This document shows positions 1-38,615 of a DNA stretch of 38,615 nt, piece by piece. Position numbers and translations under genes: made by a program. This DNA comes from a virus, in the UHGV virus genome UHGV-0210052; one strand, written 5' to 3'. The stretch's first letter is position 1, and every line of letters starts with the position of its first letter. A model generated the notes under the pieces. That model ran no database searches, was not told the DNA's origin, and saw only the letters and a list, made by a program, of their open reading frames with translations.

Positions 1-282
1 ATGAAGCTAAACATCGACCTCGGCAAATACGTTATCACCGGAACCAAACACGATCTGATTCTTAGCGAAAGAGGAATTATCAAAGAAGGCGAGAATGCAG
101 GGAAAGAAACACTAAGTCGTATCGGTTATTACAGCAAGTTTGAGCATCTGGTTAAAGAGTTATGCAACCGTGAAATCCTGTTATCTCAGGCGCAGACGCT
201 ACAGGATATTAAGCAGCATATCGAGACTTTAGGTGTGTCACTCAGCATGGCTATTGACCAGTTCGTGGAGAGTAAATCATGA
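1..282 (+). CDS. hypothetical early-left (ea) protein, 93 aa
   Basis: ORF starts at base 1 (ATG); same strand as the ea operon; stop overlaps next start (ATGA); no recognisable motif. Confidence 0.4.
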
Positions 283-443
283 GAGGACTTGCATACAATC
301 CCGGCATTCTTCCGGCAGAAATGATTATTCGCCAACGCGTAAATCCAATGCCATCGAGAGAGGAATTGCTTAAAAGAAATTCTTTTCCATCAGTGAATCA
401 AAACAAATATCTGAATGCGATGTTGCGGAGTGGGAAGAAATGA
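279..443 (+). CDS. small hypothetical protein, 54 aa
   Basis: Below track size cutoff; ATG overlaps upstream TGA (ATGA) and its stop overlaps the next ATG, a translational-coupling chain. Confidence 0.3.
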
Positions 444-829
444 AACAAATGTCACTAATTGAGATGGATGGATTTCTTAAAGGTAAATGCATCCCAAGTG
501 ATTTAAAGGTTAACGAAACAAACGCTGAATATCTGGTGCGTAAATTTGCTGAAGCGGAGGCCAAGTGCGCGGCGCTGGCGGCGGAGAATGCAAAGCTGAA
601 GGATTACCTGGCCCCTATAGGGCTGAAGGTTGAAGGGACTCCAGCCACCGACACTTTCCTGGATGAAGTCCGGGCGCAGGGCGTGGAGATGCTGGCAAAA
701 AATCATCAGAGTATCGTCAATGCACTTAAGGGAGATTCTTTATTTTCTGATGGTGAATACCGACATGCAGCTATTGTTTCCGCAGCTGTATATTTCGCTG
801 CAGAGCTTCGCAAAGGAGGCAACCAGTGA
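440..829 (+). CDS. hypothetical ea protein, 129 aa
   Basis: Intact ORF; coiled-coil-like Ala/Glu-rich middle; stop overlaps next GTG start. Confidence 0.5.
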
Positions 830-1470
830 GTAACCGTTTTTACATGATGTGCTTGCGTGAAACTGTGGGTAATAACGCCTCATTCCATTGCCATAACGGT
901 AATGGTTACAGTTCTGATATCGATCGAGCACATGTTTACACGCAGGAAGAAGCCCAAAAAGCCTGGAATTGTGGTCGAGATATCGATCAGCCTGTTTGCG
1001 CTGATAGCGTGGATGCAATGGCTGTGTGGCACGTTGATTGCCAGTACATCCCTACAGAAAGCCTGATTGAGTCAGATTGCACTGCGTATGTGGCCTACAA
1101 AAAAGGTAGCTGGAACGGCAACGATGTTTACTGGCTTCAACACGGTGGATTGCCAACAGATGACTTCAGTAAAGCGACCATCTTTAGCGTCGCCAACAAA
1201 AACGAACCAGGAATAGTTTGGTTGCCATTTTCCATTGCTGATGCAGCAAAGCGCCGGACGTTCAATATCAATAACTTTAATCGCAGAACAATGGTTCAGG
1301 GCGCAGGTTTGGTCATGCCTGACTGGTTGAAAGAGCAGAACAGAAGAAAGAAGTCGCGAAGCGGGAAGGTGCGTTGGAATTGTCCGCATTGCGGAAAAAT
1401 AACCTGGCAGTACAGCCCATATGATTTTGAAGGCTGTAGTGATTACAACTGTGAAGAATGGCGAGAATGA
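826..1470 (+). CDS. hypothetical Cys-rich protein, 214 aa
   Basis: GTG start with AAGGAGG SD 7 nt upstream; C-terminal CPHCG...C..C cluster suggests a zinc ribbon. Confidence 0.5.
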   Translation: MSNRFYMMCLRETVGNNASFHCHNGNGYSSDIDRAHVYTQEEAQKAWNCGRDIDQPVCADSVDAMAVWHVDCQYIPTESLIESDCTAYVAYKKGSWNGNDVYWLQHGGLPTDDFSKATIFSVANKNEPGIVWLPFSIADAAKRRTFNINNFNRRTMVQGAGLVMPDWLKEQNRRKKSRSGKVRWNCPHCGKITWQYSPYDFEGCSDYNCEEWRE

Positions 1471-2165
1471 AAATTGACTATCAGGCACTGCGTGAAAAGG
1501 CAGAGAAAGCAACGTGTGGTGTGTGGTCGCTCGAATATGGAAAGGGCCGATTTGATGGTGATGATGCACTAATTCATCGTGAAGTTGCTGGATATATTCC
1601 TATTTGCAGAATTGAAGGAGCGCATCCAGAAAGCGGTTTCGATGAAGATTTCCAAATGGAACAGCAGGCCAACGCTGAATTCATCGCCGCAGCCAATCCG
1701 GCTACCGTCTTGGCGCTGCTGGGCGAGCTGGAAACAGCAAAAAAGCGCATAGCAGAACTGGAAGCCGAACCTGTAAGCCAAACTTGCAAGTTGCCAGTTA
1801 ATACACCTTGCCAAGATGCGCCAGCCCATATCTGGCTGCAAACGGCTGGAGTATGGCCAGAAGATGGCGAGTTAAGCGAATTAACGTGGTGCAGCCACAA
1901 TCAGCACCATGATGACACGCTATATGTTCGAGCTGACCTTGTGAATGGCAACTCTCCGGTAACTCCGGATGGTTGGATAAGCTGTAGTGAGCGAATGCCG
2001 GATAAGTTAATTCCGGTAATGGTCATGTATGAAGACGGTGAGATGTGGTCTGCAATGTGGAATGGTAATCGCTGGGATGATGGCACCGAATATCCGGATC
2101 CGCACTCAGTTACGCACTGGCGTGAAATGCCAGCAGCACCTAAGCAGGAGGTTAACCGTGGCTAA
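1458..2165 (+). CDS. Ead/Ea22-like protein with DUF551-like C-terminal domain
   Basis: N-terminal ALREKAEKATCG...ANAEFIAAANPATVLALLGELE matches the Ea22-like family of lambdoid prophages as recalled; alternative start ATG 1467. Confidence 0.6.
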   Translation: MARMKIDYQALREKAEKATCGVWSLEYGKGRFDGDDALIHREVAGYIPICRIEGAHPESGFDEDFQMEQQANAEFIAAANPATVLALLGELETAKKRIAELEAEPVSQTCKLPVNTPCQDAPAHIWLQTAGVWPEDGELSELTWCSHNQHHDDTLYVRADLVNGNSPVTPDGWISCSERMPDKLIPVMVMYEDGEMWSAMWNGNRWDDGTEYPDPHSVTHWREMPAAPKQEVNRG

Positions 2166-2442
2166 CCTGCAACTTGCCGTTAAAGGTGAATATTTCGACC
2201 AGATGAAGTCATACGAGAAAACGGAAGAGTATCGCCTGTGTAATGATTACTGGAAAAAGCGAATTATGTTCCGGAAGTATGACCGCCTGATTATCACAAA
2301 GGGATATCCGAAGCGCGACGATTCCAGTCGCAGAATTGATGTTCCGTATGGTGGATATGAAATCAAAACAATCACACATCCGCACTTCGGTGATAAACCG
2401 GTAAAGGTGTTCGCGATAAAGGTGAATATCAGCAATGAATAA
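2158..2442 (+). CDS. hypothetical protein, 94 aa
   Basis: GTG start at 2158 with AGGAGG SD at 2146-2151; the track's 2029 start lies inside the upstream gene. Confidence 0.45.
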   Translation: MANLQLAVKGEYFDQMKSYEKTEEYRLCNDYWKKRIMFRKYDRLIITKGYPKRDDSSRRIDVPYGGYEIKTITHPHFGDKPVKVFAIKVNISNE

Positions 2443-2443
2443 C

Positions 2444-2473
2444 AATCCTCGCACTCGCGGGGATTTCTTTTAT
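2444..2473 (+). terminator. intrinsic terminator-like hairpin
   Basis: 9 bp stem (AATCCTCGC/GCGGGGATT, one G-U) with 4 nt loop followed by TCTTTTAT. Confidence 0.45.
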
Positions 2474-2501
2474 CTGAACTCGCTACGGCGAGTTTTGTTT
2501 T

Positions 2502-2813
2502 ATGGAGATGATTATGGCCTGTTCAACATTCAACCATCTAACGTTACAGAAATACCAGACAGACCCTGAAGATTTATGCTCACTGTGTGGCGGAAATCAT
2601 GGTAAAGCCGCCATGATCGAATGTAAGGACAAAATCCACATTTGCCTTAATTGCGTTGATGTCCTCGTTGATATCAAAAATGAGAGAGAAGATAAAAAGC
2701 GTAGCGAGGCTGTTCGCGCCTTAGATTCATGGATGCGGGATGGATATAGTGCCGCGCAAATTTATGACTTAGCAATATCAAAAGGAGAAATACCAGGAGT
2801 GCGCATCGAATAA
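2502..2813 (+). CDS. hypothetical Cys-rich protein, 103 aa
   Basis: Intact ORF with CxxC ... CxxC pattern; followed by a terminator. Confidence 0.45.
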   Translation: MEMIMACSTFNHLTLQKYQTDPEDLCSLCGGNHGKAAMIECKDKIHICLNCVDVLVDIKNEREDKKRSEAVRALDSWMRDGYSAAQIYDLAISKGEIPGVRIE

Positions 2814-2854
2814 GACGTAACCAACATTCGAATTGAAGAACTGAAAGAACACCA

Positions 2855-2878
2855 AGCCGCCTGATGGCGGTTTTTTAT
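2855..2878 (+). terminator. rho-independent terminator at end of ea gene block
   Basis: AGCCGCC-TGAT-GGCGGTT hairpin followed by TTTTTATTG. Confidence 0.55.
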
Positions 2879-2886
2879 TGCCTGAT

Positions 2887-2902
2887 TTGCAGGTTCGATT
2901 CC
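2887..2902 (+). other. tRNA-Arg (argW) T-arm-like fragment upstream of torI
   Basis: TTGCAGGTTCGATTCC matches the T-stem/loop of E. coli tRNA-Arg(CCU) as recalled; identity ends after CC. Confidence 0.4.
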
Positions 2903-2921
2903 CTATTCGGAGATAGCACTC

Positions 2922-3122
2922 ATGCAACACGAACTACAACCTGATTCACTGGTTGATTTGAAATTCATCATGGCTGATACTGGCTTCGGTAAAACCTTCA
3001 TCTACGACCGGATTAAGTCCGGCGACCTGCCAAAAGCCAAAGTTATCCACGGGCGAGCAAGATGGTTATATCGTGACCATTGTGAATTCAAAAATAAGCT
3101 CTTAAGCCGCGCCAATGGGTAA
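2922..3122 (+). CDS. torI: TorI-like excisionase / recombination directionality factor, 66 aa
   Basis: Protein matches, from memory, the 66 aa TorI excisionase of the KplE1/CPS-53 prophage; lies immediately upstream of attP core and int. Confidence 0.7.
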   Translation: MQHELQPDSLVDLKFIMADTGFGKTFIYDRIKSGDLPKAKVIHGRARWLYRDHCEFKNKLLSRANG

Positions 3123-3137
3123 AATAGCGGGTAAAAT
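3117..3137 (+). repeat. two direct GGGTAAAAT repeats at torI stop (putative arm-type recombinase sites)
   Basis: GGGTAAAAT at 3117-3125 and 3129-3137; same motif recurs at 3327-3371. Confidence 0.45.
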
Positions 3138-3195
3138 ATTTCTCACATCTAAAAAACACCATTCAAATCAATCCCCTGCCTCGTCAAGTAGATGT

Positions 3196-3210
3196 CTGCA
3201 GGGGACACCA
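3196..3210 (+). other. attP core: identity to 3-prime end of tRNA-Arg argW
   Basis: CTGCAGGGGACACCA equals T-stem 3-prime half, acceptor 3-prime strand, discriminator and CCA of argW as recalled; flanked by CCCCTGC/GCAGGGG inverted repeat; lies between torI and int. Confidence 0.6.
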
Positions 3211-3326
3211 TTTATCAGTTCGCTCCCATCCGTACCAGTCCGCAAAATCCCCTGAATATCAAGCCTTACGTATATTCACGGTTCGTCATGGTTCGCGTCA
3301 GATCGTTGACAGCCGCACTCCATGAC

Positions 3327-3371
3327 GGGTAAAAAGTGGATAAAATAATTTTACCCACCGGATTTTTACCC
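3327..3371. repeat. GGGTAAAA motif cluster abutting int start codon
   Basis: GGGTAAAAA at 3327-3335 direct; TTTTACCC at 3349-3356 and 3364-3371 inverted; last copy ends 1 nt before int ATG. Confidence 0.45.
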
Positions 3372-4529
3372 ATGCTCACCGTTAAGCAGATTGAAGCAGC
3401 AAAGCCGAAAGAAAAACCATACCGCCTACTCGATGGTAATGGCCTGTACCTTTATGTCCCTGTATCAGGGAAAAAGGTATGGCAGCTTCGCTACAAGATT
3501 GACGGTAAGGAGAAAATCCTGACTGTCGGAAAATATCCGCTTATGACTTTGCAGGAAGCAAGGGATAAGGCATGGACTGCGAGGAAAGACATCTCGGTTG
3601 GCATCGATCCGGTAAAGGCGAAAAAGTCTTCGTCTAGCAACAATTCATTTAGTGCGATTTACAAGGAATGGTACGAGCACAAGAAGCAAGTCTGGTCAGT
3701 AGGCTATGCAACTGAACTTGCCAAAATGTTTGATGACGACATTTTACCCATCATCGGCGGTCTTGAGATTCAGGATATTGAGCCGATGCAACTGCTGGAA
3801 GTAATCCGCAGATTTGAAGATCGCGGTGCAATGGAGCGAGCCAACAAAGCCCGCAGAAGATGCGGCGAGGTTTTTCGTTACGCTATTGTCACTGGTAGGG
3901 CTAAATATAACCCGGCACCTGACCTTGCTGACGCCATGAAGGGATACCGCAAGAAGAACTTCCCGTTTTTACCTGCCGACCAGATCCCGGCATTCAACAA
4001 AGCACTTGCAACATTTTCAGGAAGTATCGTATCGCTCATTGCGACCAAAGTTTTACGCTACACAGCCCTAAGAACGAAAGAGCTTCGTTCCATGCAATGG
4101 AAGAACGTCGATTTTGAAAACAGGATTATCACCATCGACGCCAGTGTGATGAAGGGACGCAAAATTCATGTTGTCCCGATGTCAGACCAGGTGGTTGAAC
4201 TTCTCACTACGCTAAGCTCAATCACTAAACCAGTATCAGAGTTTGTTTTTGCCGGGCGCAACGATAAGAAAAAGCCAATCTGCGAGAACGCGGTATTGCT
4301 TGTGATCAAACAAATCGGCTATGAGGGTCTGGAAAGCGGTCACGGATTCAGGCATGAATTCAGCACGATTATGAACGAGCACGAATGGCCTGCTGACGCT
4401 ATTGAAGTGCAACTTGCACATGCCAACGGCGGATCTGTGCGCGGGATTTACAACCATGCTCAGTATCTAGATAAGCGCAGAGAAATGATGCAGTGGTGGG
4501 CTGACTGGATTGATGAAAAGGTGGAGTGA
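3372..4529 (+). CDS. intS: tyrosine integrase, IntS (CPS-53/KplE1) type, 385 aa
   Basis: From MLTVKQIEAAKPKEK the protein matches K-12 IntS as recalled; C-terminal R...HGFRH...Y catalytic motifs; track GTG 3336 start rejected. Confidence 0.9.
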   Translation: MLTVKQIEAAKPKEKPYRLLDGNGLYLYVPVSGKKVWQLRYKIDGKEKILTVGKYPLMTLQEARDKAWTARKDISVGIDPVKAKKSSSSNNSFSAIYKEWYEHKKQVWSVGYATELAKMFDDDILPIIGGLEIQDIEPMQLLEVIRRFEDRGAMERANKARRRCGEVFRYAIVTGRAKYNPAPDLADAMKGYRKKNFPFLPADQIPAFNKALATFSGSIVSLIATKVLRYTALRTKELRSMQWKNVDFENRIITIDASVMKGRKIHVVPMSDQVVELLTTLSSITKPVSEFVFAGRNDKKKPICENAVLLVIKQIGYEGLESGHGFRHEFSTIMNEHEWPADAIEVQLAHANGGSVRGIYNHAQYLDKRREMMQWWADWIDEKVE

Positions 4530-4713
4530 TCGATCTTAACCACTATCGGATAGTACAAAGCTTTGTGTGCCTCGTTCATGCCTCACATTACCTGGCAATC
4601 ATCAAATTCACCAGAACGTTCATAAATCGTCTTTGTGATCTGCTTCACTGTTAGACGTAATACTTTTTGCAGTTATTTTATAATCATAGAAATGCTCATC
4701 ATGAGCAGTGAGT

Positions 4714-4744
4714 TGGTGATCTGCGCTGGTAGCCCTGCTATAAT
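4714..4744 (+). promoter_or_regulatory. candidate promoter for acyltransferase gene
   Basis: TATAAT at 4739-4744 with TTGGTG at 4714-4719 (19 bp spacer, suboptimal). Confidence 0.3.
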
Positions 4745-4762
4745 CCTTTGAAATTTTATCTC

Positions 4763-5902
4763 ATGGTGTGCATTATGATCTTTGAGGCGCAAAGTCTTTA
4801 TTTATATTTTTTGTCTCTTTTAGCCGTTGTGTTATGTATTACACTATTGACACGATATAACTATTTTTCTCACATCAACTTTGCAAGTAACAGGTATTTC
4901 TTTATAGACGGATTGCGTGGGATAGCTGCGTTCAGCGTTCTTATTAATCACGGCGCTCATACAATTATTACCAATGGAGTTCAGCCCATATTTATAGACT
5001 TCACAAAATACTCCATCACAGGGAATATGGGTAGCTTCGGTGTACAGATTTTCTTTTGCATTACAGGATTTTTGTTCTTTGATAAATTAATAAAAGGAAA
5101 TAATACATTTGACTGGAATAAATTTTATGTTGCTCGGATAAAAAGACTCGTTCCTCTATATATGCTTACTGCGCTTTTGGTGGCAATTTTAGCTATTATA
5201 TTATCCGGCAGTTCAGCAAGGCTTAACTTTGTTGATTTTTCAAGCTTCCTAAATTTTTTTGGGTTTGGATTTTTGGGCACAGAAATCTTCATTGGCTCTT
5301 TTAACGCATCAGGATTAAATGCGGTGATATGGACTCTACCGTATGAATGGAGGTTTTATTTAATTTTCCCTCTATTATCGATTGCCATCGCAAGCAAGAG
5401 ATATGGTATGTTTGCCATTTCCGCAGTAATGTTACTTGCGGCAAGAGACTTTATGACAGAATTTGTTTTGTGGCCATATTTTATAGTTGGCGCCTTAGGT
5501 GCATATATATTCAATAAATCTTATGTTAACATTGATGATAAATATTGGATATTCTCATTCATTTCTTTCATAGCTATTTTTGTTATCTTCTGCTCTTCCG
5601 CAGACAGCTATGGACGAATCAGATTTGCATGCATTTCATTACTATTTATAATGGTACTTATAACTAAACCAAAAATATTTAAAATAAAATCATTAGTTTA
5701 TTTAGGTGAGGCAAGTTATAGTCTTTATTTGCTGCATTTGCCTATCATGGCTATAGTAATGAGAACAATAAATAATTTCTATAACCTATCGAGCATGTCT
5801 ACTGTGAATTACACAATTTTGATAGCCTTTATTGCATCTCTGTGTAGCGTTATTTCCTGTATCTGTTTTAAGAATTTTGAGTGGAGATTCATTAAAAAGT
5901 AA
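4763..5902 (+). CDS. membrane acyltransferase family 3 (OafA/Oac-like), candidate O-antigen acetyltransferase
   Basis: Multi-TM protein with R...FIDGLRGIAAFSVLINHG acyltransferase_3 motif; very AT-rich versus flanks; start uncertain (track TTG 4748, ATG 4763 or 4775). Confidence 0.75.
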   Translation: MVCIMIFEAQSLYLYFLSLLAVVLCITLLTRYNYFSHINFASNRYFFIDGLRGIAAFSVLINHGAHTIITNGVQPIFIDFTKYSITGNMGSFGVQIFFCITGFLFFDKLIKGNNTFDWNKFYVARIKRLVPLYMLTALLVAILAIILSGSSARLNFVDFSSFLNFFGFGFLGTEIFIGSFNASGLNAVIWTLPYEWRFYLIFPLLSIAIASKRYGMFAISAVMLLAARDFMTEFVLWPYFIVGALGAYIFNKSYVNIDDKYWIFSFISFIAIFVIFCSSADSYGRIRFACISLLFIMVLITKPKIFKIKSLVYLGEASYSLYLLHLPIMAIVMRTINNFYNLSSMSTVNYTILIAFIASLCSVISCICFKNFEWRFIKK

Positions 5903-5906
5903 CATT

Positions 5907-5933
5907 GCGGGGCGATGGCCCCGCTTGATTTCC
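5907..5933. terminator. bidirectional terminator between acyltransferase and tailspike
   Basis: GCGGGGC-GATG-GCCCCGC 7 bp GC-rich hairpin with T-rich tracts on both sides. Confidence 0.6.
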
Positions 5934-5934
5934 G

Positions 5935-8133
5935 CTACGCTATATTAAGATTACCATATGTATTGTTTCCAAGACCATACCATGCCCAGTTTGTTCCTGA
6001 TGCAGGAGTACCTGCATTGTGAATCATATCGCCTATATTTATCAGCACTTTCCCAGGGTATGTTGTAGTAGGAGCAGTGTCTATTCCAGCAGACACATCG
6101 GCAAAACGCCAACCACAGGAAACCATATCTGCGTTATCTCTAAATTTCTTAATTGAAAACGTGTATCTGTTTCCTCTATATATCATTCCAGCAAAACTAG
6201 GCCAGTCAATAAGTTGATTTACTGGTGAGTTTAAAGTGTTACTAAACTCATTATTTTCAATAACTGGTTCATCGATACGCACACCCGAAGTTGATACTAG
6301 ATATGTAGAATCAAAGTCGTTGTCAGAAATAATTGGAGCATAACCACCAATTTCACAACCTGTATTGCCATGAACAAAATATGACTTATTCCCTCGGTAT
6401 ATAGATTTTCTCCATGTGGGCATTGTTACTTTTACGGCATCAGTTCTATCAAACTGGTTGTTTTCAATCACAAGTCCATAACAATATGCAGACATCTGAG
6501 TTTCAGCATAATCATTTATGGCATAACCACCGCCTTTAAATGTATTTTTTGTTATTTTAATTCCATTGAATGATGTTGAGTAGTCATTACTACCATTCCA
6601 GATAATTAGAATATGAGATGAAAATGTGCCATCCTCGTTCTGATCCCCAATGCTTATATTGCTATCAATAACAACATTCTGCGCTGCAACACCGTTAGAT
6701 TCACCTCCTATCTCAACGAATATTCCTTGTCCTGTTTTGATGTTATTCGATATAACTGCACCACCAGTCACCCCCCAAGGAGTAATCCTAGACTGAATAC
6801 TTATAGGGCTTATAAAGTGATTTCTTTCTGCAATTAAATATTTTGTTCTTGCTGAGCACGCAAAATCTTCACCAAAAGTATGCCATTTTCTGCCTGTTCT
6901 GTACGTTTGGCAGTCAATCATCTTAGCAATTCCATTAAGATTTTTAGTGAAAAATGTATAATTTGTTACCAAATCAGTCCTTACATTGCTAAGAGTTATA
7001 TCCTCATTTGGTATAGCACCGTCACCATCAGCATCTGCCATTACAAAGATTCTTGCAGCCAATACGTCAATATCATTAATAGATCCACTACTCCCCTCAA
7101 GTGCGAAACCAAACCAATTCTCTTGAGGGGTAAACGTGGTATCTGAAGGTCCAGTTGAAAAATTTGTGCATGACTGGTTTAACTTTATACCATTAAATTT
7201 AAAGTTTTTGCAGTTGAATAAACCAAAGCAAACACGCTCAGCCTCACCATTTCCATCTGTATTTATATTTACATCATTATCTGCGTAAACAAATAAATTA
7301 TTTTTACCATTAATTACAATTGCTGTTTTACGTATAACACCTGCAGAGTCATGATATTGCTGGCTGATTTGGTAATTAAACTTTATCTCACCGGCGCTAA
7401 AACGTATTGCTCTAACACCACCAAATTTTGATATACAAGCGTTAACCGATGCCGTTGAATCATGCACTCCGTTAATATCATGTCCAGCCCAAACTGTATG
7501 TATGCCATCGAGCACACAATTCGAACGGATCCAGCAACCAGAGCCACCACCATCACTCTCACCAGTTCCCGCAAGGAAAGCAGCGAGCTCAGCATACGAA
7601 CCATCCCACGGAACTGTGGGGCTAAATATGGTGATACCGTTGTGCTGAGATTTAGGCATGCTGGCATCCCAGTAAAACTGCCCGCCGCCAAAGTTGGTTC
7701 CTGGTACGTATCCAATTACATTTAATGTGTGATTCCCAGCAGGCTCGCTCATTAAGGTATGGATGTCAGGAACATTCTCCATTCGCTGGCTAAACTGATC
7801 GGGATCATACTTCAGCACATTGGGAAAATAGAACTGCTGCGAACCATACGCATCATATACAGCCATGGAATGGCCTTGCACAGTTACGAACTTGGCAATC
7901 TGTCCGTTATATACCGGATATCCGGCAGCGTTAATGATTATTGGTTGCGAAACAGGAACGTGAGAGCCGTCTTCGTTCTCTATATAAACCTGAATCTGGT
8001 TTTCTGAATTTACGGGGTCAGCGTCAATTTTACCGATATAAATTTTACCATTGGCAACTGCTTTAAAAGAACGCGCCATAGTGAAGAGTTGCGAAGGCAT
8101 GCTTACCACAACATTTGCGGTGATATCTGACAT
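5935..8133 (-). CDS. tailspike protein, P22-like head-binding N-terminus plus distinct receptor-binding domain, 732 aa
   Basis: [37 protein letters not shown] matches P22 gp9 N-terminal domain as recalled; GGAG SD before ATG 8133; track start 8181 rejected. Confidence 0.9.
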
Positions 8134-8254
8134 TTCATTGCTCCAGACGAATGATATGATGCAACCATGATGTGATTGCATACCGAAATGGTACTATTGA
8201 GTATTTATCCAGTAGGTTACGATGCCATTCCACCCAACTGGTGAGGCATCAAGG

Positions 8255-8515: not shown

Positions 8516-8532
8516 CCATCCGTTGCTTTCCG

Positions 8533-30054: not shown

Positions 30055-30377
30055 AAATACCCTCTCTCACTTAATCGCGCCCACGCTTCGTTAAACTCTT
30101 CTCGAGTTGCGCCGGATTTTCTTTCTTCAAACATCATGCATTCGCTGATGTCTCCCCATGACTTTGATCGCTTTTCAGCGAACAGATCATCCCATTCGAA
30201 TACCCAGCGGCCTGATTTTCGGTAGTGGTAAATGGTCAGCCATGTTGTGCTGTTCGCTGGATACCCATAGAGAACTTCGACTTTTTGATCACGGTCTTTA
30301 TGCTTTTTCAGCAGGATAAAGCCAGCAACCAGCGAAGCTCCGGCAAGAATGATGATTGGAATTTGCCAGTCAGCCAC
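30051..30377 (-). CDS. hypothetical membrane-anchored protein, 108 aa
   Basis: GTG start; N-terminal TM helix IPIIILAGASLVAGFILL. Confidence 0.5.
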   Translation of the reverse strand: MADWQIPIIILAGASLVAGFILLKKHKDRDQKVEVLYGYPANSTTWLTIYHYRKSGRWVFEWDDLFAEKRSKSWGDISECMMFEERKSGATREEFNEAWARLSERGYL

Positions 30378-31904: not shown

Positions 31905-32769
31905 GAACTTTCAGGTAGGTATTGTCGTTAAGCAGGAAATCAAATCCCTTTTTGTGCCAGACGGTTCCGCGTTGATGGTTTGGGCGTTCTTCGAACATCC
32001 ATCGGCAATTTTCGCCTACGTAGCTCAAATAATTTCTCCAGTCCTGCATCGTGAACCCATGCCCGTCAAGCTGGCGGGTTATCACTCCGGCTTTGCGCCA
32101 GAACGTTCGGATCTGGTTTTTACGCTTGTCATTCAGTGCGCGGATTCTTGGCGCTTCAGGAAGGATTTCGTGGTAAGCATCGACAACATCCTGACAGCTA
32201 ACGGAAGGTTTTTTCTTGTCAGACTTTTTGTCTGCTGTGGCACTCTCTAATACGTCAGTATTAGAGATATTATTTATATTATTGTTTATGGACAACCGTT
32301 GGACAACCGTTGGACAATCTCCGCTGAGAGCCGCGCCATTACTGGGGTTTGCGTTGGACAACCGTTGGACAACCGTTGGACAATTTTTTGCCTGAAAATC
32401 GTCATATTTAACGATTGTAAACAGGCTAAATTTCTTCCCCATCGAGCAAATATTAAGCATCCCTTTCGACTCAAAAGTCCGTAATAAGCTCCGAACTTTG
32501 TTGTCGGGGATGAATGTTTCTCTGACCAGCGACGGGCGTCCAGTTATCATCTGACCGCGATCAACAGTTATCGGACCGATATCCGTATTGACGACAGTAG
32601 ATTCGTGATTAGCCTTGAGGATTAAGTGAAGCCAAAGATGTACTGCCTGAGAGTCCTTATAGAGCCTGCTGTCCATAAACTGGCGGTGTATAGAGACATA
32701 CCCCATACTGGATGCCTCCTGATGTTGTACAGGGTTATGCCTGTAATCAGCTAACTTAACGACGCCCAT
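31879..32769 (-). CDS. replication initiation protein (lambda O-like role) containing origin iterons, 296 aa
   Basis: Position upstream of helicase; internal CPTVVQRLS peptide repeats encoded by DNA iterons. Confidence 0.75.
   Translation of the reverse strand: MGVVKLADYRHNPVQHQEASSMGYVSIHRQFMDSRLYKDSQAVHLWLHLILKANHESTVVNTDIGPITVDRGQMITGRPSLVRETFIPDNKVRSLLRTFESKGMLNICSMGKKFSLFTIVKYDDFQAKNCPTVVQRLSNANPSNGAALSGDCPTVVQRLSINNNINNISNTDVLESATADKKSDKKKPSVSCQDVVDAYHEILPEAPRIRALNDKRKNQIRTFWRKAGVITRQLDGHGFTMQDWRNYLSYVGENCRWMFEERPNHQRGTVWHKKGFDFLLNDNTYLKVREGEHDDR
32288..32386. repeat. origin iterons: two clusters of three 11 bp GGACAACCGTT repeats
   Basis: Tandem copies at 32290-32320 and 32356-32386, followed on the - strand by an AT-rich tract. 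Confidence 0.7.
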
Positions 32770-32917
32770 GTTTCACTCCTGCTTTTGCTAGTCTGTAAAC
32801 ACCAACAAGGCGCTCTGCGAACGCCCTGTTATTTGCTGCGGCTACCACTAATCCCTCAGGTGAATCAGGGTGTCGAATCTCTTCTTTTTCCTGGTATTTC
32901 TTACGACGTTTTGTCAT
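32756..32917 (-). CDS. small basic hypothetical protein, 53 aa
   Basis: ATG 32917 with AGGAG SD; stop overlaps start of O-like gene; below track cutoff. Confidence 0.35.
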   Translation of the reverse strand: MTKRRKKYQEKEEIRHPDSPEGLVVAAANNRAFAERLVGVYRLAKAGVKHGRR

Positions 32918-32926: not shown

Positions 32927-32995
32927 TGTGGATTGATCCAGTCTTTCTACATCAGGCCTCGAAGAATTCGCCGTTCTTCGGGGCTTTTTCTTTTG
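32927..32995 (+). ncRNA. OOP-like antisense RNA opposite the cII 3-prime end
   Basis: Strong + strand terminator (10 bp stem CCTCGAAGAA/TTCTTCGGGG then TTTTTCTTTT) inside the cII 3-prime end; CATAAT -10-like box at 32915-32920. Confidence 0.4.
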
Positions 32996-33230
32996 TCAGC
33001 ATTCTGGCTACTTTCTTAGCCAGTTCCGCCAACTCCTCGTCTTCAACACCCCACTCCAGTACAGCCAGAAGCATGGCCATCTTTGGGATAAAGCTGTCTT
33101 TCCATCGCGAAATTTGCGATTCATTGATCCCTAATGCGTCGGCCACCTTTCGCTGACCACGTACAGCAATTCGATTCAGGATGTTGCTTGTAATTGCATT
33201 CGCTTTCTTGCGAGTACTTGTAAGTTGCAT
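32952..33230 (-). CDS. cII: CII transcriptional activator, 92 aa
   Basis: SQISRWKDSFIPKMAMLLAVLEWGV matches lambda CII core as recalled. Confidence 0.85.
   Translation of the reverse strand: MQLTSTRKKANAITSNILNRIAVRGQRKVADALGINESQISRWKDSFIPKMAMLLAVLEWGVEDEELAELAKKVARMLTKEKAPKNGEFFEA
33184..33197 (+). promoter_or_regulatory. CII binding site TTGC-N6-TTGC (PRE -35 region)
   Basis: TTGCTTGTAATTGC on + strand inside the cII 5-prime coding region, oriented toward cI. Confidence 0.5.
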
Positions 33231-33288
33231 ATGTAAGTATTTCCTTAACTAATAAGAAGTTATGCGCATCAACTTATGCGCGTTGTAT

Positions 33289-33332
33289 TCCCGCATTTCG
33301 GCGGGAATGAGGACCATGACTGTTAAAGAGCG
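33289..33332 (-). promoter_or_regulatory. nutR (boxA CGCTCTTTAACA, boxB hairpin)
   Basis: On - strand boxA-like CGCTCTTTAACA after cro stop, then UCCCGCCGAAAUGCGGGA stem-loop; same elements recur at nutL. Confidence 0.6.
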
Positions 33333-33338
33333 GTGTTA

Positions 33339-33539
33339 CTATTTGTTTTTCTTGTTGCTTGGGAAAGGACGAACTTCCTCTCCAATCACACTGCCATCAG
33401 GCTTTACCGTAACCATGATGTTACGGCCTGCCAGAATGGCCTTGCTGATAGCGCACTGGATTACACCAAAGTCACTGGCTGCTTTAGCCTGTCCATGGAT
33501 TTTGGCGTAATCGGCAAGTGTCATTCGAATCATATGCAC
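33339..33539 (-). CDS. cro: Cro repressor, 66 aa
   Basis: [49 protein letters not shown] closely resembles lambda Cro as recalled; GTG start. Confidence 0.85.
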
Positions 33540-33562
33540 TCTCCGTTATTAACCATGAACAA

Positions 33563-33591
33563 AGAATACTACAGGTATTCAAAGCAATCAA
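33563..33591 (-). promoter_or_regulatory. PR promoter
   Basis: On - strand TTGATT, 17 bp spacer, TATTCT; overlaps OR1/OR2. Confidence 0.5.
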
Positions 33592-33628
33592 TACTCAGGG
33601 TATTTTTAGTTTAAGTACCTTAGCTATT
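33565..33628. promoter_or_regulatory. OR operator array (three 15 bp AATAC-N5-GTATT sites)
   Basis: AATACTACAGGTATT 33565-33579, AATACTCAGGGTATT 33590-33604, degenerate AGTACCTTAGCTATT 33614-33628. Confidence 0.6.
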
Positions 33629-33633
33629 AGAAT
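33605..33633 (+). promoter_or_regulatory. PRM promoter (leaderless cI transcript)
   Basis: TAGAAT at 33628-33633, 7 nt before cI ATG with no SD; weak -35 TTTAGT. Confidence 0.4.
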
Positions 33634-33639
33634 TAAGCT

Positions 33640-34356
33640 ATGGAAAATAAAAAATCACTGACGACAGAACAGCTCGAAGACGCTAAGCGGCTTAAGGCTT
33701 TGTATGAGTCAAAAAAGAAAGAATTGGGAATAACCCAATACTCAATCGCTGATGAACTGGGTATCACCCAAGGAGCGGTAGGGCATTATCTTAATGGCAG
33801 AAACGCGCTAAACGTTGAGGTTGCATCTGGTTTTGCACGATTGTTGCAAGTCTCAATTGCTGATTTTAGCCAGTCAATTGCTGCCAAGGTTGCAGAACAG
33901 GCAGAAAGCCTTAAGAGCGATGCCAACGTAAGGTATGCAGGGGAATACAGAGCAGGAAAGAGGTATCCGGTGTTAAGCAGTATCCAGGCTGGCTCGTGGT
34001 GTGAAGCATGCGAACCATACACCATTAAAGACATAGATGTTTGGCTTGAGTCTGACGCGCATATTCAAGGTAATGCGTTTTGGCTTAAAGTGGAAGGTGA
34101 TTCAATGACGGCACCGGTTGGGTTAAGCATTCCAGAGGGAACATTCGTTCTTTTCGATACCGGAAGGGAGGCGATCAACGGCAGCTTGGTCATAGCAAAA
34201 CTTTCTGACTCTAACGAAGCAACATTCAAGAAGCTGATAATCGACGGCGGAAATAAATACCTCAAGGGACTTAATCCTGCATGGCCTCTCGTGCCAATCA
34301 ATGGAAACTGCAAGATTATAGGCGTTGCAATTGAGACAAAACTAAGGCTGGTTTGA
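33640..34356 (+). CDS. cI: CI repressor (HTH N-terminus, LexA-like S24 C-terminus), 238 aa
   Basis: LTTEQLEDAKRLKALYESKKKELG, Ser/Lys dyad context (EGDSM ... FKKL); resembles lambda CI as recalled. Confidence 0.9.
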   Translation: MENKKSLTTEQLEDAKRLKALYESKKKELGITQYSIADELGITQGAVGHYLNGRNALNVEVASGFARLLQVSIADFSQSIAAKVAEQAESLKSDANVRYAGEYRAGKRYPVLSSIQAGSWCEACEPYTIKDIDVWLESDAHIQGNAFWLKVEGDSMTAPVGLSIPEGTFVLFDTGREAINGSLVIAKLSDSNEATFKKLIIDGGNKYLKGLNPAWPLVPINGNCKIIGVAIETKLRLV

Positions 34357-34373
34357 TCACGCAAGGGGCGATT

Positions 34374-34742
34374 ATGGTTGGAACCGCTATAGCAAGCTTT
34401 TTTGGGATGTTGGCAATCTCGACAATTTACGGCTTAGCGCATGCTTTTATTGCGAAATCTCTATCAGAAAAAATAAGCCAGGCTTGGGCGCATAGATCAG
34501 CTCGTTTCATGATTCTTGTGATCATAGCAATACAAGGGATATCTGCATTTATCCTCTATGGATCAAGCTTATACCTATTGTATCAAGGCGCGACATTTAC
34601 GCCTTACACCAGTGATTACGGAACTCTATACGATGGTAGTGAAGACATCACTGTGGCTTGGATCGTCTTTGGTTTATCTATGGCCGTGTCTGTTGTAGCA
34701 GACATCATTAAGGTAATTCTCGTCTTAACCTTCGCTGACTAA
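34374..34742 (+). CDS. small multi-TM membrane protein co-transcribed with cI, 122 aa
   Basis: ATG 34374 with AAGGGG SD; starts 18 nt after cI stop; three predicted TM helices; no motif recognised. Confidence 0.5.
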   Translation: MVGTAIASFFGMLAISTIYGLAHAFIAKSLSEKISQAWAHRSARFMILVIIAIQGISAFILYGSSLYLLYQGATFTPYTSDYGTLYDGSEDITVAWIVFGLSMAVSVVADIIKVILVLTFAD

Positions 34743-34828
34743 CCCATAATCCCGACAGCAATAGCTATCGGGATCCACTTCACATATCCCGCATAAAAAT
34801 CACTGAACAAGCAGACAGCGAAAAAATA

Positions 34829-34913
34829 AATATCCTTTGTATTCATTTGTTTATCATTATTTCATCAAAAATAAATACCTTGGGTATTTACACAATAAAA
34901 TACCTACAGTATT
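34829..34913. promoter_or_regulatory. OL operator array
   Basis: AATATCCTTTGTATT 34829-34843, AATACCTTGGGTATT 34874-34888, AATACCTACAGTATT 34899-34913; same consensus as OR. Confidence 0.55.
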
Positions 34914-34915
34914 CT
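34887..34915 (+). promoter_or_regulatory. PL promoter
   Basis: TTTACA, 17 bp spacer, TATTCT; overlaps OL sites; about 195 nt upstream of N. Confidence 0.5.
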
Positions 34916-34961
34916 TTAGCCATCAGCAGGACGCTGGAAGCCAAACGGAACAGATTGGCAG

Positions 34962-35002
34962 GCTCTTTAACATTGATGGGATTGTCCCGCCGAAATGCGG
35001 GA
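34962..35002 (+). promoter_or_regulatory. nutL (boxA GCTCTTTAACA, boxB hairpin)
   Basis: boxA 34962-34972; boxB TCCCGCCGAAATGCGGGA 34985-35002, identical to the nutR boxB. Confidence 0.6.
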
Positions 35003-35109
35003 ACCAAAGAGTAGTTGGCTTTGGGGTGGCGTGAAGTGCAGCTGCACGACGGCAACCGGAAGATAAGCACCCGGCGCGTCACCGCCAAAGTCAATCATCG
35101 GAGGTCAAC

Positions 35110-35382
35110 ATGACAGTAGTCATTACATATCTGGCTGACGATAACGCCAGAAATCGCCGCAGAGCACGCAGACAGGCTCAACGTGAACAGGCAATGCAAG
35201 AGCAGCGACTGGCACGAAAAATTGCGCTAAAGCTCTCTGGTTGCGTCAGAGCAGATAAAGCAGCATCACTCGGAAGCCTTCGCTGCAAGAAGGCAGATGA
35301 ATGCAGTGGAAGTATTTGCCTGCCAAACGTAGCCATTTACGCGGCAGGCTACCGGAAATCAAAACAACTGACAGCGAGGTAA
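35110..35382 (+). CDS. N: N antiterminator, P22 gp24 type, 90 aa
   Basis: Arg-rich N-terminus NARNRRRARRQAQREQ; C-terminus AIYAAGYRKSKQLTAR resembles P22 gene 24 protein as recalled; GGAGG SD. Confidence 0.8.
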   Translation: MTVVITYLADDNARNRRRARRQAQREQAMQEQRLARKIALKLSGCVRADKAASLGSLRCKKADECSGSICLPNVAIYAAGYRKSKQLTAR

Positions 35383-35610
35383 GTGGTGAATCAGACATAC
35401 ATTCCATCATGCTTGAGAAATCTGCCAAAGCAGAAAGCAAAGCCCCGCAAGCAAGCCATAAAGGACGCTAAGGCAGAGGTTATTGATCAAGCAATACAAT
35501 TGCTCAGGGAGGAGTTAAGAAGTGGCAAGCTCGAAGGAATGATGATGCCCTATCAGCGCGGATATCTATCGGCGATTAGTAAGTTGGAAGTATTGAAGAG
35601 TGAATTATGA
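35383..35610 (+). CDS. hypothetical protein, 75 aa
   Basis: GTG start directly after N stop; basic N-terminus, helical C-terminus. Confidence 0.4.
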   Translation: MVNQTYIPSCLRNLPKQKAKPRKQAIKDAKAEVIDQAIQLLREELRSGKLEGMMMPYQRGYLSAISKLEVLKSEL

Positions 35611-35665
35611 ACTATCTGGAATTTCCGGATGGTTCATTGTTTTGGCAGCAAGCATAGAGGTGAAT

Positions 35666-35962
35666 ATGGAATTCAAAGGTACTAAAGGTAAGTGGGAAAT
35701 AATGATGGATGGCGATGAGATTAAAATCATCCAGGCAGACTCACTTGAAAATGGCGCAGGCTGGCGTTCGTATATTGCAATCTGTGAGGAAGTTCAATGC
35801 ATTGAAGATGCCAATCTAATAGCGGCAGCACCTGACCTTCTCGAAGCACTTCAGTTATTACTTAAGCAAGCCAAAAATAGAACAACGACAACATATCCAG
35901 AATGGTATGGAGCTGTTAATAAGGCTCTCGAAGCTATCAAAAAAGCTATAGGTGATGAATAA
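35666..35962 (+). CDS. hypothetical protein, 98 aa (alternative start 35600)
   Basis: ATG 35666 preceded by GAGGTG SD; AT-rich; stop shares a base with next ATG. Confidence 0.4.
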   Translation: MEFKGTKGKWEIMMDGDEIKIIQADSLENGAGWRSYIAICEEVQCIEDANLIAAAPDLLEALQLLLKQAKNRTTTTYPEWYGAVNKALEAIKKAIGDE

Positions 35963-36150
35963 TGAAAGTAAAAATAACTGCTTCTAATACCAGTTTTGTT
36001 AGTGTTGGTGATATTACAGAAGTAATAACAAACCATGATGGAACACAAGTTATGTGGTCTGATTTCTGTAAAAGATATGAGCGAGTTAGTTGGTGTAAAC
36101 TCGTATGGGGCGTCGAATACGAAGAATTACCTGAAATGCATGACGAATAA
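35962..36150 (+). CDS. hypothetical protein, 62 aa
   Basis: ATG overlapping upstream TAA; AT-rich; followed by inverted repeat and terminator. Confidence 0.45.
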   Translation: MKVKITASNTSFVSVGDITEVITNHDGTQVMWSDFCKRYERVSWCKLVWGVEYEELPEMHDE

Positions 36151-36245
36151 GCACTGTGTATTCATTCCAACGAGTGAATACACGGAGCAATGTCGCTCGT
36201 AACTAAACAGGAGCCGACTTGTTCTGATTATTGGAAATCTTCTTT

Positions 36246-36271
36246 GCCCTCCAATGTGAGGGCCTTTTTAT
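36246..36271 (+). terminator. rho-independent terminator inside the PL operon (tL-like)
   Basis: GCCCTC-CAATGT-GAGGGC hairpin followed by CTTTTTAT. Confidence 0.6.
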
Positions 36272-36335
36272 ATGCATACCAATAACGCTTCACGAGAGGC
36301 GTTTTCGTTATGCAATCAAACAGAAGGAGCATCCT

Positions 36336-36506
36336 ATGCAACAGTTCGCTATTGCAGGGGCGGCATCGGTTCGCCCTTTCAACCCGATTTTATCGGTACA
36401 GCATTCACGAAAAAATATTTTAACCGGAGCAGACTTTAAACAACCAAGAATGAAAAGTTTGCTCGAAAAGCTTTGGGATATTTTGAAACAACAAGGCCGT
36501 CCATGA
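36336..36506 (+). CDS. cIII: CIII-like protein (FtsH inhibitor), 56 aa
   Basis: MQQFAIAG ... KSLLEKLWDILKQQGRP parallels lambda CIII MQYAIAG ... RLIDILNQPG as recalled; AAGGAG SD; track start 36231 rejected (spans terminator). Confidence 0.7.
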   Translation: MQQFAIAGAASVRPFNPILSVQHSRKNILTGADFKQPRMKSLLEKLWDILKQQGRP

Positions 36507-36610
36507 GTTTTACAGATAACTGGTCAGACGAAGAATTCATTCGTCAGATGAACAAAATGCTCAATCAGCACAAAGAACAGGAGAAAGATGATGATTCTGA
36601 CTCTGAATGA
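36503..36610 (+). CDS. small acidic hypothetical peptide, 35 aa
   Basis: ATG overlaps cIII stop (ATGA); overlaps next gene in another frame. Confidence 0.3.
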   Translation: MSFTDNWSDEEFIRQMNKMLNQHKEQEKDDDSDSE

Positions 36611-36899
36611 TAAGCGTGAAATATCGCAAATAATCGCAAGTTTTACTGATGAAGATTACGAACGAATCAACAGTGAAGTTGATCGCCTCTGCAAACGTTG
36701 CGACCCAATAAGCGAAATGCTTCGCTCATATAAACCAGATGAACACACTAAGGACGCTATCGACTGGCTGGAAGATGATGACTGTAACTATCAGGAAAAA
36801 GCCGCTGAATGGTTCTGGGATGCAATAACCGAAAGAGTTAAGGCTGAATATGCCTTCGCAATATTCAAACGCAGACACATTTTTGGAGAAGCAGCATGA
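36588..36899 (+). CDS. hypothetical protein, 103 aa
   Basis: AGGAG SD before ATG 36588; directly upstream of recT. Confidence 0.5.
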   Translation: MMILTLNDKREISQIIASFTDEDYERINSEVDRLCKRCDPISEMLRSYKPDEHTKDAIDWLEDDDCNYQEKAAEWFWDAITERVKAEYAFAIFKRRHIFGEAA

Positions 36900-37807
36900 G
36901 CAATATCGTTGAATTCGTTAAACAGCAGGAGCAGTTATTCTGCGGAGCATTGACTGAACAGACGGTGACATGGGCTAAGGAAAGCCAGTTTGCAATTCAG
37001 TATTTCCAGAAAAACGATTACCTGGCTAAAACGGCACTGGCAAATCCGACCAGCGCACAGAACGCTATCATCAACGTTGCGGCGATCGGCATCACCTTAA
37101 ACCCGGCCAGCAAACTGGCTTATCTAGTTCCGCGCGACGGCATGGTTTGCCTTGATATCAGCTATATGGGATTGCTCCATATTGCAATGGAGTCTGGTGT
37201 TATCTCATGGGGTCAGGCAAAACTTGTTCATGCTAACGATACCTATGAGTCAAACGGGCTTGATAAAGCACCAACCCATAAATACAACGCCTTCGGTGAT
37301 CGTGGTGATATCGTTGGCGTTTACTGCACAGTTAAGACGCCAGCAGGTGATTATCTAACGGAAGAGATGAGTCTGGCTGAAATTGAGGCTGTAAGGAAAA
37401 CAAGCAAGGCGGCATTCAGCGATAAAGGACCATGGGTAAATCACTGGAATGAGATGGCGCGAAAGACGGTCGTAAAGCGTGCAAGCAAGTATTGGCCTAA
37501 GGCATCACGTCTTGATAGTGCTATTCACGTACTAAACGAAGAAGAAGGTGTATGGACTGAACCAGTTATGCCGCACAAATCAGAGGAAGATATCCGCGAA
37601 GATGAACGGAAACGCCAGCAGGAAATTATGGAAAAAGCACAACTTCTTTGTGATGAAATGGCTCAGGCAGAAAACATGGATGATTTGAAGCGATATTTTG
37701 CAGAAGCATATCGCCTGACATCTGGAATGAAATTGCAGCAGAACGTACAAGCCATTTACGCAGAATGCAAAGCGAAACTGGAGGTTGCCAGTGAGCAAAC
37801 TATATGA
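36896..37807 (+). CDS. recT: RecT-family single-strand annealing recombinase, 303 aa
   Basis: GPWVNHWNEMARKTVVKRASKYWP matches the Rac RecT motif GPWVTHWEEMAKKTAIRRLFKYLP as recalled. Confidence 0.85.
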   Translation: MSNIVEFVKQQEQLFCGALTEQTVTWAKESQFAIQYFQKNDYLAKTALANPTSAQNAIINVAAIGITLNPASKLAYLVPRDGMVCLDISYMGLLHIAMESGVISWGQAKLVHANDTYESNGLDKAPTHKYNAFGDRGDIVGVYCTVKTPAGDYLTEEMSLAEIEAVRKTSKAAFSDKGPWVNHWNEMARKTVVKRASKYWPKASRLDSAIHVLNEEEGVWTEPVMPHKSEEDIREDERKRQQEIMEKAQLLCDEMAQAENMDDLKRYFAEAYRLTSGMKLQQNVQAIYAECKAKLEVASEQTI

Positions 37808-38273
37808 AATTGCCAATGAATACGCAAAATTGATGGATTCAGATTTAGAACCAGAGATGATTGCTGACACAATAGAAGGCATGGAAGGAGAGTTTACCGA
37901 TAAAATAGAGCAACTTCTTGCCATTATTAAAAATGAATCTGGTTATGCTGAACGCCTCAAGGACGAGGCAAAGTCACTGAATGAACGAGCAGCAGTAATT
38001 CAAAATAAGATTGATAGCATTATGGCATATATAGCCTCATCGCTTGAAATGGTTGGCAAGAAAAAGATTAGAGCAGGTATTCACCAGGTAACAATCCGCA
38101 AACCGTCAGAAACTGTAGAAATCATCGACTCAAGCGCCCTTCCTCCTGAATACGTTGAGTTTGAAACGACAATTAAAGCCGACAAGTTGGCAATCAAGCA
38201 CCAACTAAAAGCAGGAATAAATATCCCAGGCGCTCAACTCAAGGTTGGGAAACCTTCACTTCTTATCAAATAA
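37791..38273 (+). CDS. Gp157-like protein (Siphovirus Gp157 family), 160 aa
   Basis: GTG 37791 with GGAGG SD; KLYEIANEY ... VEIIDSSALPPEY pattern typical of Gp157-family proteins next to RecT/Sak recombinases. Confidence 0.55.
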   Translation: MSKLYEIANEYAKLMDSDLEPEMIADTIEGMEGEFTDKIEQLLAIIKNESGYAERLKDEAKSLNERAAVIQNKIDSIMAYIASSLEMVGKKKIRAGIHQVTIRKPSETVEIIDSSALPPEYVEFETTIKADKLAIKHQLKAGINIPGAQLKVGKPSLLIK

Positions 38274-38284
38274 CGGTATCGCCT

Positions 38285-38599
38285 ATGAAAAAGACTCCAT
38301 GGGAGAAATGGGAAGTCGATTTCTTGCGCGAAGTGGCGGCGACAATGCCAGTTGAAGTTATCGCTGAAAAACTGGAAAGGACTGAAAAAGCAGTAATGGC
38401 GAAAGCAACAAGGATTGGAGCTGACATTGTTAGCCGACTTCGTGGAAGACGATGGACAAGAGCCGAAGTATCACTTTTCGGTAAGTTCTCCGCAGAAGAA
38501 ATAGCAATTGCAACCTGCCGCTCAATTTATTCAGTAAGGGCTATGCGATACAAGCTAAAAAAACTCGATGAAGAAAGAGCAGGCATACGAATAAATTAA
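38285..38599 (+). CDS. hypothetical protein, 104 aa
   Basis: Intact ORF; continues the early-left operon toward window end. Confidence 0.45.
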   Translation: MKKTPWEKWEVDFLREVAATMPVEVIAEKLERTEKAVMAKATRIGADIVSRLRGRRWTRAEVSLFGKFSAEEIAIATCRSIYSVRAMRYKLKKLDEERAGIRIN

Positions 38600-38615
38600 C
38601 ATGGAATAATTAACA

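Follow-up and report, generated by a model that had tools for sequence, protein, structure and literature searches.

The 38,615-bp sequence UHGV-0210052, referred to below as the window (the whole stretch of DNA analysed), is best read, at a probability of about 0.9, as one full-length genome of a temperate P22-like (Lederbergvirus-type) podovirus of Escherichia coli/Shigella, present in the unintegrated form with an intact phage attachment site (attP) and written as a circle opened in the early-left operon. The opening point is exactly the ATG of a gene for a DUF5405 protein. The original prediction of a whole, unintegrated and mosaic phage genome is borne out by a single attP, by ends that rejoin seamlessly, by the presence of every module once and by the lack of host DNA. 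The length falls inside the range of 38.0–46.1 kb found for related phage records.

The attachment site shows the configuration of the genome. The 16-nt core CTGCAGGGGACACCAT, annotated as the attP core in phages Sf6 and HK620, occurs once in the window, and no second core was found there even when two mismatches were allowed. The first 15 nt of the core (3196–3210) are the final 15 nt, i.e. the 3' end, of the tRNA-Arg gene argW. The published 16-nt core bordering the KplE1 prophage is also CTGCAGGGGACACCAT (PMC2951348), and the TorI proteins of Sf6 and HK620 were reported to be 100% identical to KplE1 TorI (PMC3509656). Together with an IntS protein 98–99% identical in amino acids to the integrases of Sf6, HK620 and CUS-3, these data confirm that the integration module is of the argW/KplE1 type, as had been proposed. 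The intS open reading frame (ORF) had been drawn longer in the original prediction, from an upstream GTG at 3336.

A three-way alignment of the window site with attL and attR of the full P22-like prophage at argW in NZ_CP026085.1 showed that the left arm of the window site matches the phage arm of attR and the right arm that of attL. The site is thus attP, and neither attL nor attR. The exact 47-nt arm-core-arm string was present in nine IMG/VR phage contigs, mostly of about 37–41 kb, and in none of the 185,579 species representatives of GTDB. The gene order in the window is ea genes-torI-core-intS-acyltransferase-tailspike, whereas in integrated relatives it is always argW-intS...torI-host genes, with yfdC-argW beside intS and csc or dsd genes beside torI; the location of attP between torI and intS makes intS the first and torI the last gene of the prophage. 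Integration would have left hybrid sites, attL and attR, at the boundaries and host genes beyond them; the window contains one core carrying both phage arms, with torI, core and intS contiguous and phage genes on either side. A 46-aa ORF at 3115–3255 (plus strand), a homologue of hkaB and Sf6 gene 17 with 44 of 46 residues as in Sf6, begins in the torI stop region and runs through the attP core, and is intact in the unintegrated form only. The record NZ_CP026085.1, in which the complete prophage lies at argW beside the csc sucrose genes, is labelled E. coli DH5alpha; its match statistics are those of E. coli W records, which makes the strain label look doubtful, and it is called W-like here.

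The two ends of the window are free of any terminal direct repeat or assembly overlap. The early-left operon runs off the right end, where the last ORF stops at 38599, and resumes at base 1 with an ORF starting with ATG. When the last 700 nt were fused to the first 700 nt and compared by BLAST with E. coli genomes, a single colinear piece spanned the join in 143 of them, the gene order across it being Gp157, 104-aa ORF, DUF5405 and DUF2737. The exact 60-mer over the join was found inside eight IMG/VR contigs, whose alignments to the doubled window pass straight through. Moreover, an exact-protein look-up of the unusual ORF at 440–829 led to the Logan contig SRR7892487_104 (4,697 nt), which corresponds to 38309..38615 followed by 1..4390 of the window, ungapped and with two mismatches (99.96%). 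This independent assembly therefore crosses the end join and the torI-attP-intS segment in one molecule. The end-to-start join is natural sequence, and the continuity of the operon foreseen in the original prediction was confirmed. Since an ORF start exactly at base 1 is unlikely to result from a random cut, the record was probably rotated deliberately to a gene start.

The genome is complete with respect to its modules. Those for packaging and head formation, tail completion, ejection, the tailspike, lysis, Q, nin, replication (including iterons), immunity, N, RecT/Gp157 and excision/integration are each found a single time. A nearly identical annotated homologue exists for every gene. Apart from the iterons of the replication origin, no repeats of at least 30 nt occur in the window. 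Of its bases, 97.4% could be aligned to a small set of phage and prophage references, and the ORFs in the unaligned patches match PHROG or Pfam phage families. A scan of the window for tRNA genes returned none, in line with the earlier statement that host-like genes are lacking, and the host genes which flank integrated relatives (yfdC-argW, csc, dsd) are absent from it. An Rfam scan of the window gave no family at the gathering score, and a PADLOC scan of ten unassigned early-left and cargo ORFs gave no credible match.

The mosaic ancestry is evident from the comparison with known phages. Both window halves were compared by megablast with 50,697 phage records, and all matches were to P22-like (Lederbergvirus) or lambdoid phages, the top matches being all Lederbergvirus; the best records were Sf101, HK620, Kapi1, CUS-3 and Sf6, with 94–97% identity over patches. 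None of the 50,697 records covered 80% of either half, and the same result was obtained with complete E. coli genomes and PLSDB plasmids; in the collections searched no genome shared more than about 60% of the window. The fraction aligned by local blastn was 8.6% for lambda, 19.5% (at 84% identity) for P22, about 48% each for Sf6, HK620, CUS-3 and Sf101 (91–95% identity), 51% for the W-like argW prophage and 61% for the argW prophage of strain PM7. Expressed as identical window bases, the values were 44–46% for Sf6, HK620, CUS-3 and Sf101 and 16% for P22. The comparison with P22, Sf6, HK620, CUS-3 and lambda, which the original prediction had suggested as a check, confirmed that the genome is mosaic.

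The contributions of the individual relatives can be described as follows. With Sf101 (NC_027398) and CUS-3 (CP000711) the window shares TerL, portal, scaffold, coat and gp4 (94–100% aa identity in both), and additionally gp16 with Sf101 (96%) and TerS (99%) and the intS/argW module (99%) with CUS-3; for these two phages the share of identical window bases is about 45–46%. Both phages differ from it in the tailspike, the cargo gene, the immunity and the early-left genes; Sf101 has another integrase (21% aa identity) and lacks torI, and CUS-3 has an endosialidase tailspike, another immunity region, a phage-21-type Q and Erf in place of RecT. HK620 (NC_002730) shares the cII-cro-cI-hkaS-N segment (99.2% nt identity), Q, roi, rusA, ninH and the helicase, as well as the torI-attP-intS module with the identical 16-nt core, but has head genes of the Sf6 type, another needle, gp20, gp16 and tailspike, a cargo gene resembling an O-antigen polymerase, recombination genes of the Sak4 type and an O initiator only 66% identical. 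Within the O-like initiator gene the similarity to HK620 stops exactly at the first iteron, at 32289, which places a breakpoint inside the gene. Sf6 (NC_005344) is related through gp20, the gp26 needle with its knob, gp7, gp14, gp10, the O/P replication genes and their iterons, a number of nin ORFs, Rz/Rz1, torI-attP-intS and the window's first ORF, all at 96–100% aa identity. It differs in having its own type of head genes (portal 56%, scaffold 33%, no match for the coat), a phage-21-type Q with tRNAs, 434-type immunity, Erf recombination, another tailspike and the oac acetylase, which is 22% identical to the window acyltransferase.

Among the prophages, that of the W-like strain (NZ_CP026085) is 99.3% identical in nucleotides over 3196–8524, and that of PM7 (NZ_CP073996) aligns with 61% of the window at 96%; both are integrated, and they are unlike the window in the head genes (W-like prophage) or in the immunity region and the early-left genes. 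Lambda (NC_001416) shares Q, the late leader, S, R, NinB and NinF (95–100%) and has no virion, immunity, replication or integration genes in common with the window. P22 (NC_002371) shares the virion gene order and families, with gp10, gp14 and gp7 at 84–93%, gene 23 at 98% and gp15 at 90%; it has another integrase and att site, another immunity, Erf/Abc genes, a full immI region and gtrABC genes.

The P22-like virion set is found on the minus strand, from 22550 down to 5935, all genes once and in the order TerS-TerL-portal-scaffold-coat-gp4-gp10-gp26-gp14-gp7-gp20-gp16-(immI)-tailspike. The Pfam families P22_CoatProtein, Head_binding and Phage_tail_NK matched window proteins. In the loci of relatives, products equal in length to those of the window carry the annotations P22_portal, P22_Tail-4, P22_gp7 and Phage_P22_gp16, the gp16 product being the exact sequence. 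The description of the virion module as P22-like is consequently correct for gene order and protein families; it does not extend to the sequences, as the segment from TerS to gp4 is of the CUS-3/Sf101 type, the coat and portal are 29% and 35% identical to those of P22, and neither P22 TerL nor the P22 scaffold matched any window protein. Conservation across all relatives is seen for gp10, gp14 and gp7. Prophages at two chromosomal locations, beside argW/yfdC and beside ybhB-bioA, encode a gp16 identical to the 767-aa protein of the window, and these prophages differ from one another in cargo (gtrA/gtrB-like genes, acyltransferases) and tailspikes. Between gp16 and the tailspike (8222–8533) no ant, arc or sieA-like gene was found, and the immI region is reduced to the Mnt/Arc repressor.

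The late control is of the lambda type: the lambda Q gene is accompanied by its cognate pR'-qut-6S-tR' leader with a handful of mismatches, the leader of P22 being much shorter. The proposed matches to lambda are accurate for Q (100%), S (99%), R (99%) and NinB (95% in amino acids) and for the late leader (about 97% in nucleotides), and NinF is also lambda-like. For Rz the match holds over the first ~250 nt only, the protein being 59% identical to that of lambda, 97% to that of Sf6 and 90% to P22 gp15; a breakpoint lies inside this gene (24198–24446), lambda-like sequence being followed by P22/Sf6-like sequence. A P22-like N had likewise been proposed, which is supported by the conserved termini only. 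Overall N is 36% identical to P22 gp24 and 98% identical to HK620 N, with a different arginine-rich motif.

The genuineness of such a combination has to be considered, since co-occurring P22-like phage contigs could have been merged at conserved segments during assembly, giving a partly chimeric mosaic that does not exist in nature. The absence of any searched genome covering more than about 60% of the window would fit this explanation. So would two findings that weigh against the reading as a single phage genome: eight short stretches, most of them in the ea region, were not spanned by a single reference from the set of loci compared, and the ea arrangement at 300–2700 is unique among complete E. 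coli genomes, with a maximum coverage of 66%. A position was regarded as bridged when it lay, with 100 nt on either side, inside a single high-scoring segment pair of at least 90% identity from an independent genome. On this basis 95% of the window positions are bridged, including the major module joints at 8524, 10656, 13921 and 22198, and the Q-S interval is present in one piece, 99.9% identical, in another E. coli prophage. Mosaicism is normal in this group, every reference compared being its own different mix, and the core genes are all full-length. In addition, the most unusual stretch, 1–4390 with the end join, is reproduced by the independent Logan assembly SRR7892487_104. A chimera is for these reasons very improbable.

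The window might also be exactly one repeat unit of a tandem prophage array, polylysogenic or concatemer-like, and hence integrated in spite of its internal attP. Such an assembly does exist: the chromosome of E. coli GPEC60-33-648 (NZ_CM142764.1) has a head-to-tail duplicated P22-like prophage with torI-att-intS in its interior, and torI-att-intS is contiguous in 17 E. coli records. Cutting one unit out of a tandem prophage or a concatemer assembly would give a sequence that looks the same as the window. Searches of INPHARED, PLSDB, complete E. coli genomes, IMG/VR, GTDB representatives and JGI metagenomes by megablast of the halves and by exact patterns did not recover the source record, and the evidence is thus confined to the window; these points, too, count against an independent phage genome, as does the fact that we infer the host and the viability of the phage, and likewise its packaging mode. 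The sequence alone is compatible with virion DNA, with a circle excised in a lysogen culture and with one tandem-array unit. An array would, however, need to have been trimmed to precisely one unit that has no overlap and starts with ATG, and the ends carry no duplicated sequence; a number of the E. coli records in the attP form are moreover stand-alone circular records of about 39 kb and not arrays. This origin can therefore be given only a slight chance. Several records of about 39 kb deposited as E. coli plasmids, among them NZ_CP081786.1 and NZ_CP081778.1, are P22-like phage genomes in the attP form. Most relatives in bacterial genomes sit at argW, which suggested a further candidate: an ordinary prophage in the integrated state, or some rearranged portion of it, with trimmed flanks. 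Integration necessarily divides the phage sequence at the core, whereas here both arms flank one core, and the window ends within an operon, rejoins perfectly and contains no host sequence. This candidate was rejected as contradicted by the attP structure, and its probability is close to nil. The favoured interpretation accordingly remains a complete phage genome in the attP form, an ordinary phage which represents a fresh combination of known modules rather than a new kind of element.

The features of the genome are collected in Table 1; the putative functions of all genes were assigned from close homologues. The early and regulatory genes, located between the module for integration and that for packaging, follow the lambdoid order (cI-cro-cII, N, O/P, nin, Q, S-R-Rz). 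Two separate Rha/antirepressor-like genes are present, Rha+ORF11CD3 following the lysis genes at 23148–23909 and Roi/KilAC among the nin genes at 27403–28125; for the former, the identical protein had no record in an index of 153 billion genes.

Table 1. Positions, strands and relationships of the features of the window.
Feature	Position	Strand	Remark
First ORF, 93 aa, DUF5405	1-282	+	Homologue of Sf6 gene 24, 96% aa; ATG is base 1
Hypervariable ea part of early-left operon	279-2813	+	
DUF2737 ORF	279-443	+	
ea-region ORFs	440-829, 826-1470, 2158-2442, 2514-2813	+	
Ead/Ea22+DUF551 ORF	1467-2165	+	
16-mer TTGCAGGTTCGATTCC	2887-2902	+	Identical to argW nt 46-61 (T-arm)
torI/excisionase (recombination directionality factor), 66 aa	2922-3122	+	100% aa to Sf6 gp18 and HK620 HkaC
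attP core CTGCAGGGGACACCAT, 16 nt	3196-3211	+	Single copy; annotated Sf6/HK620 attP core
intS tyrosine integrase, 385 aa	3372-4529	+	Arm-DNA-bind_3, Phage_int_M, Phage_integrase domains
Acyl_transf_3 membrane acyltransferase	4775-5902	+	33% G+C; candidate O-antigen-modifying lysogenic-conversion gene
Tailspike, 732 aa	5935-8133	-	N-terminal P22 head-binding domain; 100% aa to W-like argW prophage
Mnt/Arc-family repressor	8255-8515	+	Sole immI-region gene
gp16	8533-10836	-	Sf101 type, 96%
gp20	10836-12131	-	Sf6 type, 98%
gp7	12141-12836	-	
gp14	12839-13297	-	
gp26 needle with Sf6-type knob	13294-14142	-	Sf6 type, 98%
gp10	14142-15560	-	
gp4	15570-16031	-	CUS-3 type
Small ORF, head region	16012-16200	-	
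Coat	16242-17495	-	CUS-3 type
Scaffold	17514-18407	-	CUS-3 type
Portal	18498-20696	-	CUS-3 type
TerL	20698-22113	-	100% to CUS-3
TerS	22110-22550	-	99% to CUS-3
DUF2560 protein	22553-22795	-	
Rha/ORF11CD3 regulator-like protein	23148-23909	-	
50-aa ORF by lysis cassette	23869-24021	-	
Rz	24009-24446	-	Embedded Rz1 at 24062-24247
Endolysin R	24443-24919	-	
Holin S	24903-25226	-	
pR'-qut-6S RNA-tR' leader	25651-25948	-	~97% nt to lambda 44498-44808
Q	25949-26572	-	100% aa to lambda Q
nin region	26569-30377	-	NinH, RusA, HNH/DUF1364, Roi/KilAC antirepressor-like, NinF, NinE, Dam methyltransferase, NinB, small ORFs
DnaB-like helicase	30453-31889	-	Sf6 type
O-like initiator	31879-32769	-	Sf6 type
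11-bp iterons	32289-32384		Inside O-like gene
Small ORF, replication module	32756-32917	-	
HK620-type immunity region	32952-35382	mixed	99.2% nt to HK620
cII	32952-33230	-	
cro	33339-33533	-	
cI	33640-34356	+	
hkaS-like membrane ORF	34374-34742	+	
N	35110-35382	+	98% to HK620 N
Remaining early-left operon, including small ORFs	35383-38599	+	
cIII-like ORF	36336-36506	+	
Early-left ORF	36588-36899	+	
RecT	36896-37807	+	
Gp157	37785-38273	+	
104-aa ORF	38285-38599	+	Last of window
Intergenic spacer, 16 nt	38600-38615	+	Follows last ORF (ends 38599), abuts base 1

The life cycle can be proposed from well-studied close homologues. The choice between lysis and lysogeny would be made by the HK620-type cI/cro/cII/N switch. 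In the lysogenic pathway IntS would recombine the 16-nt core with the 3' end of argW, intS and torI becoming the first and the last prophage gene, and excision would require TorI together with IntS. Replication would be carried out by the O-like and DnaB-like proteins from the iterons within the O gene, and the late operon would be switched on by the lambda-type Q acting at the lambda-type pR'/qut leader. The head would be built and filled by the CUS-3-type terminase, portal, scaffold and coat, presumably by a headful mechanism; circularly permuted virion DNA is expected from the terminase family, TerS and TerL being 99% and 100% identical to those of CUS-3. The virion would then be completed by the gp4/gp10/gp26 tail, the gp7/gp20/gp16 ejection proteins and the tailspike, and the cell lysed by S, R and Rz/Rz1. 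On lysogeny the low-GC acyltransferase next to the tailspike would probably modify the O-antigen.

An additional feature of the integration region is the 16-mer TTGCAGGTTCGATTCC upstream of torI, in the region annotated in HK620 as pI/cII site. It occurs once in the window, and none of 100 shuffles gave a match. The acceptor-end 15-mer at 3196–3210, corresponding to argW nt 61–75, lies within the attP core 293 bp from this copy, so that the last 30 nt of argW are split around torI, with the T-arm 16-mer upstream, the core beyond it, and torI and the P arm between the two. The arrangement is conserved in Sf6, HK620, argW prophages and IMG/VR attP contigs. It is tempting to speculate that a longer block of tRNA identity existed ancestrally and was interrupted by insertion of the torI/P-arm segment, or that the T-arm copy, located as it is in the cII-dependent pI promoter region, is functional now, for instance as a second integrase or regulatory site, but such an explanation is rather unlikely. 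In the CUS-3 record CP000711 it is TTGCAGGTTCGATTCC, and not CTGCAGGGGACACCAT, that is annotated as the attL/attR core, at 1–16 and 40192–40207; the use of this core makes the record end just before torI, which was absent from it by tblastn. With no greater likelihood, crossover could alternatively take place at the T-arm 16-mer, which might account for prophage remnants and for the boundaries of the CUS-3 record.

The segment 3196–8524, comprising the core, intS, acyltransferase, tailspike and mnt, is 99.3% identical in nucleotides to that of the W-like prophage, which has different head genes. The G+C content is 33% in the acyltransferase and 39% in the receptor-binding part of the tailspike, compared with 47% for the whole genome, and the acyltransferase is only 22–30% identical to the O-acetylases of Sf6 and Sf101. 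The acyltransferase is probably an O-antigen-modifying conversion gene. A cassette determining receptor specificity and surface modification appears to move as a unit between phage backbones.

Beyond correct annotation the significance of the finding is slight. UHGV-0210052 is to be regarded as a temperate P22-like phage genome that is complete and probably viable, and neither as a prophage fragment nor as a host region. The tailspike/acyltransferase cassette would predict the O-antigen specificity of the host and its serotype conversion, and the genome as a whole provides a further data point on the exchange of modules among phages of the Sf6, HK620, CUS-3, Sf101 and lambda types.

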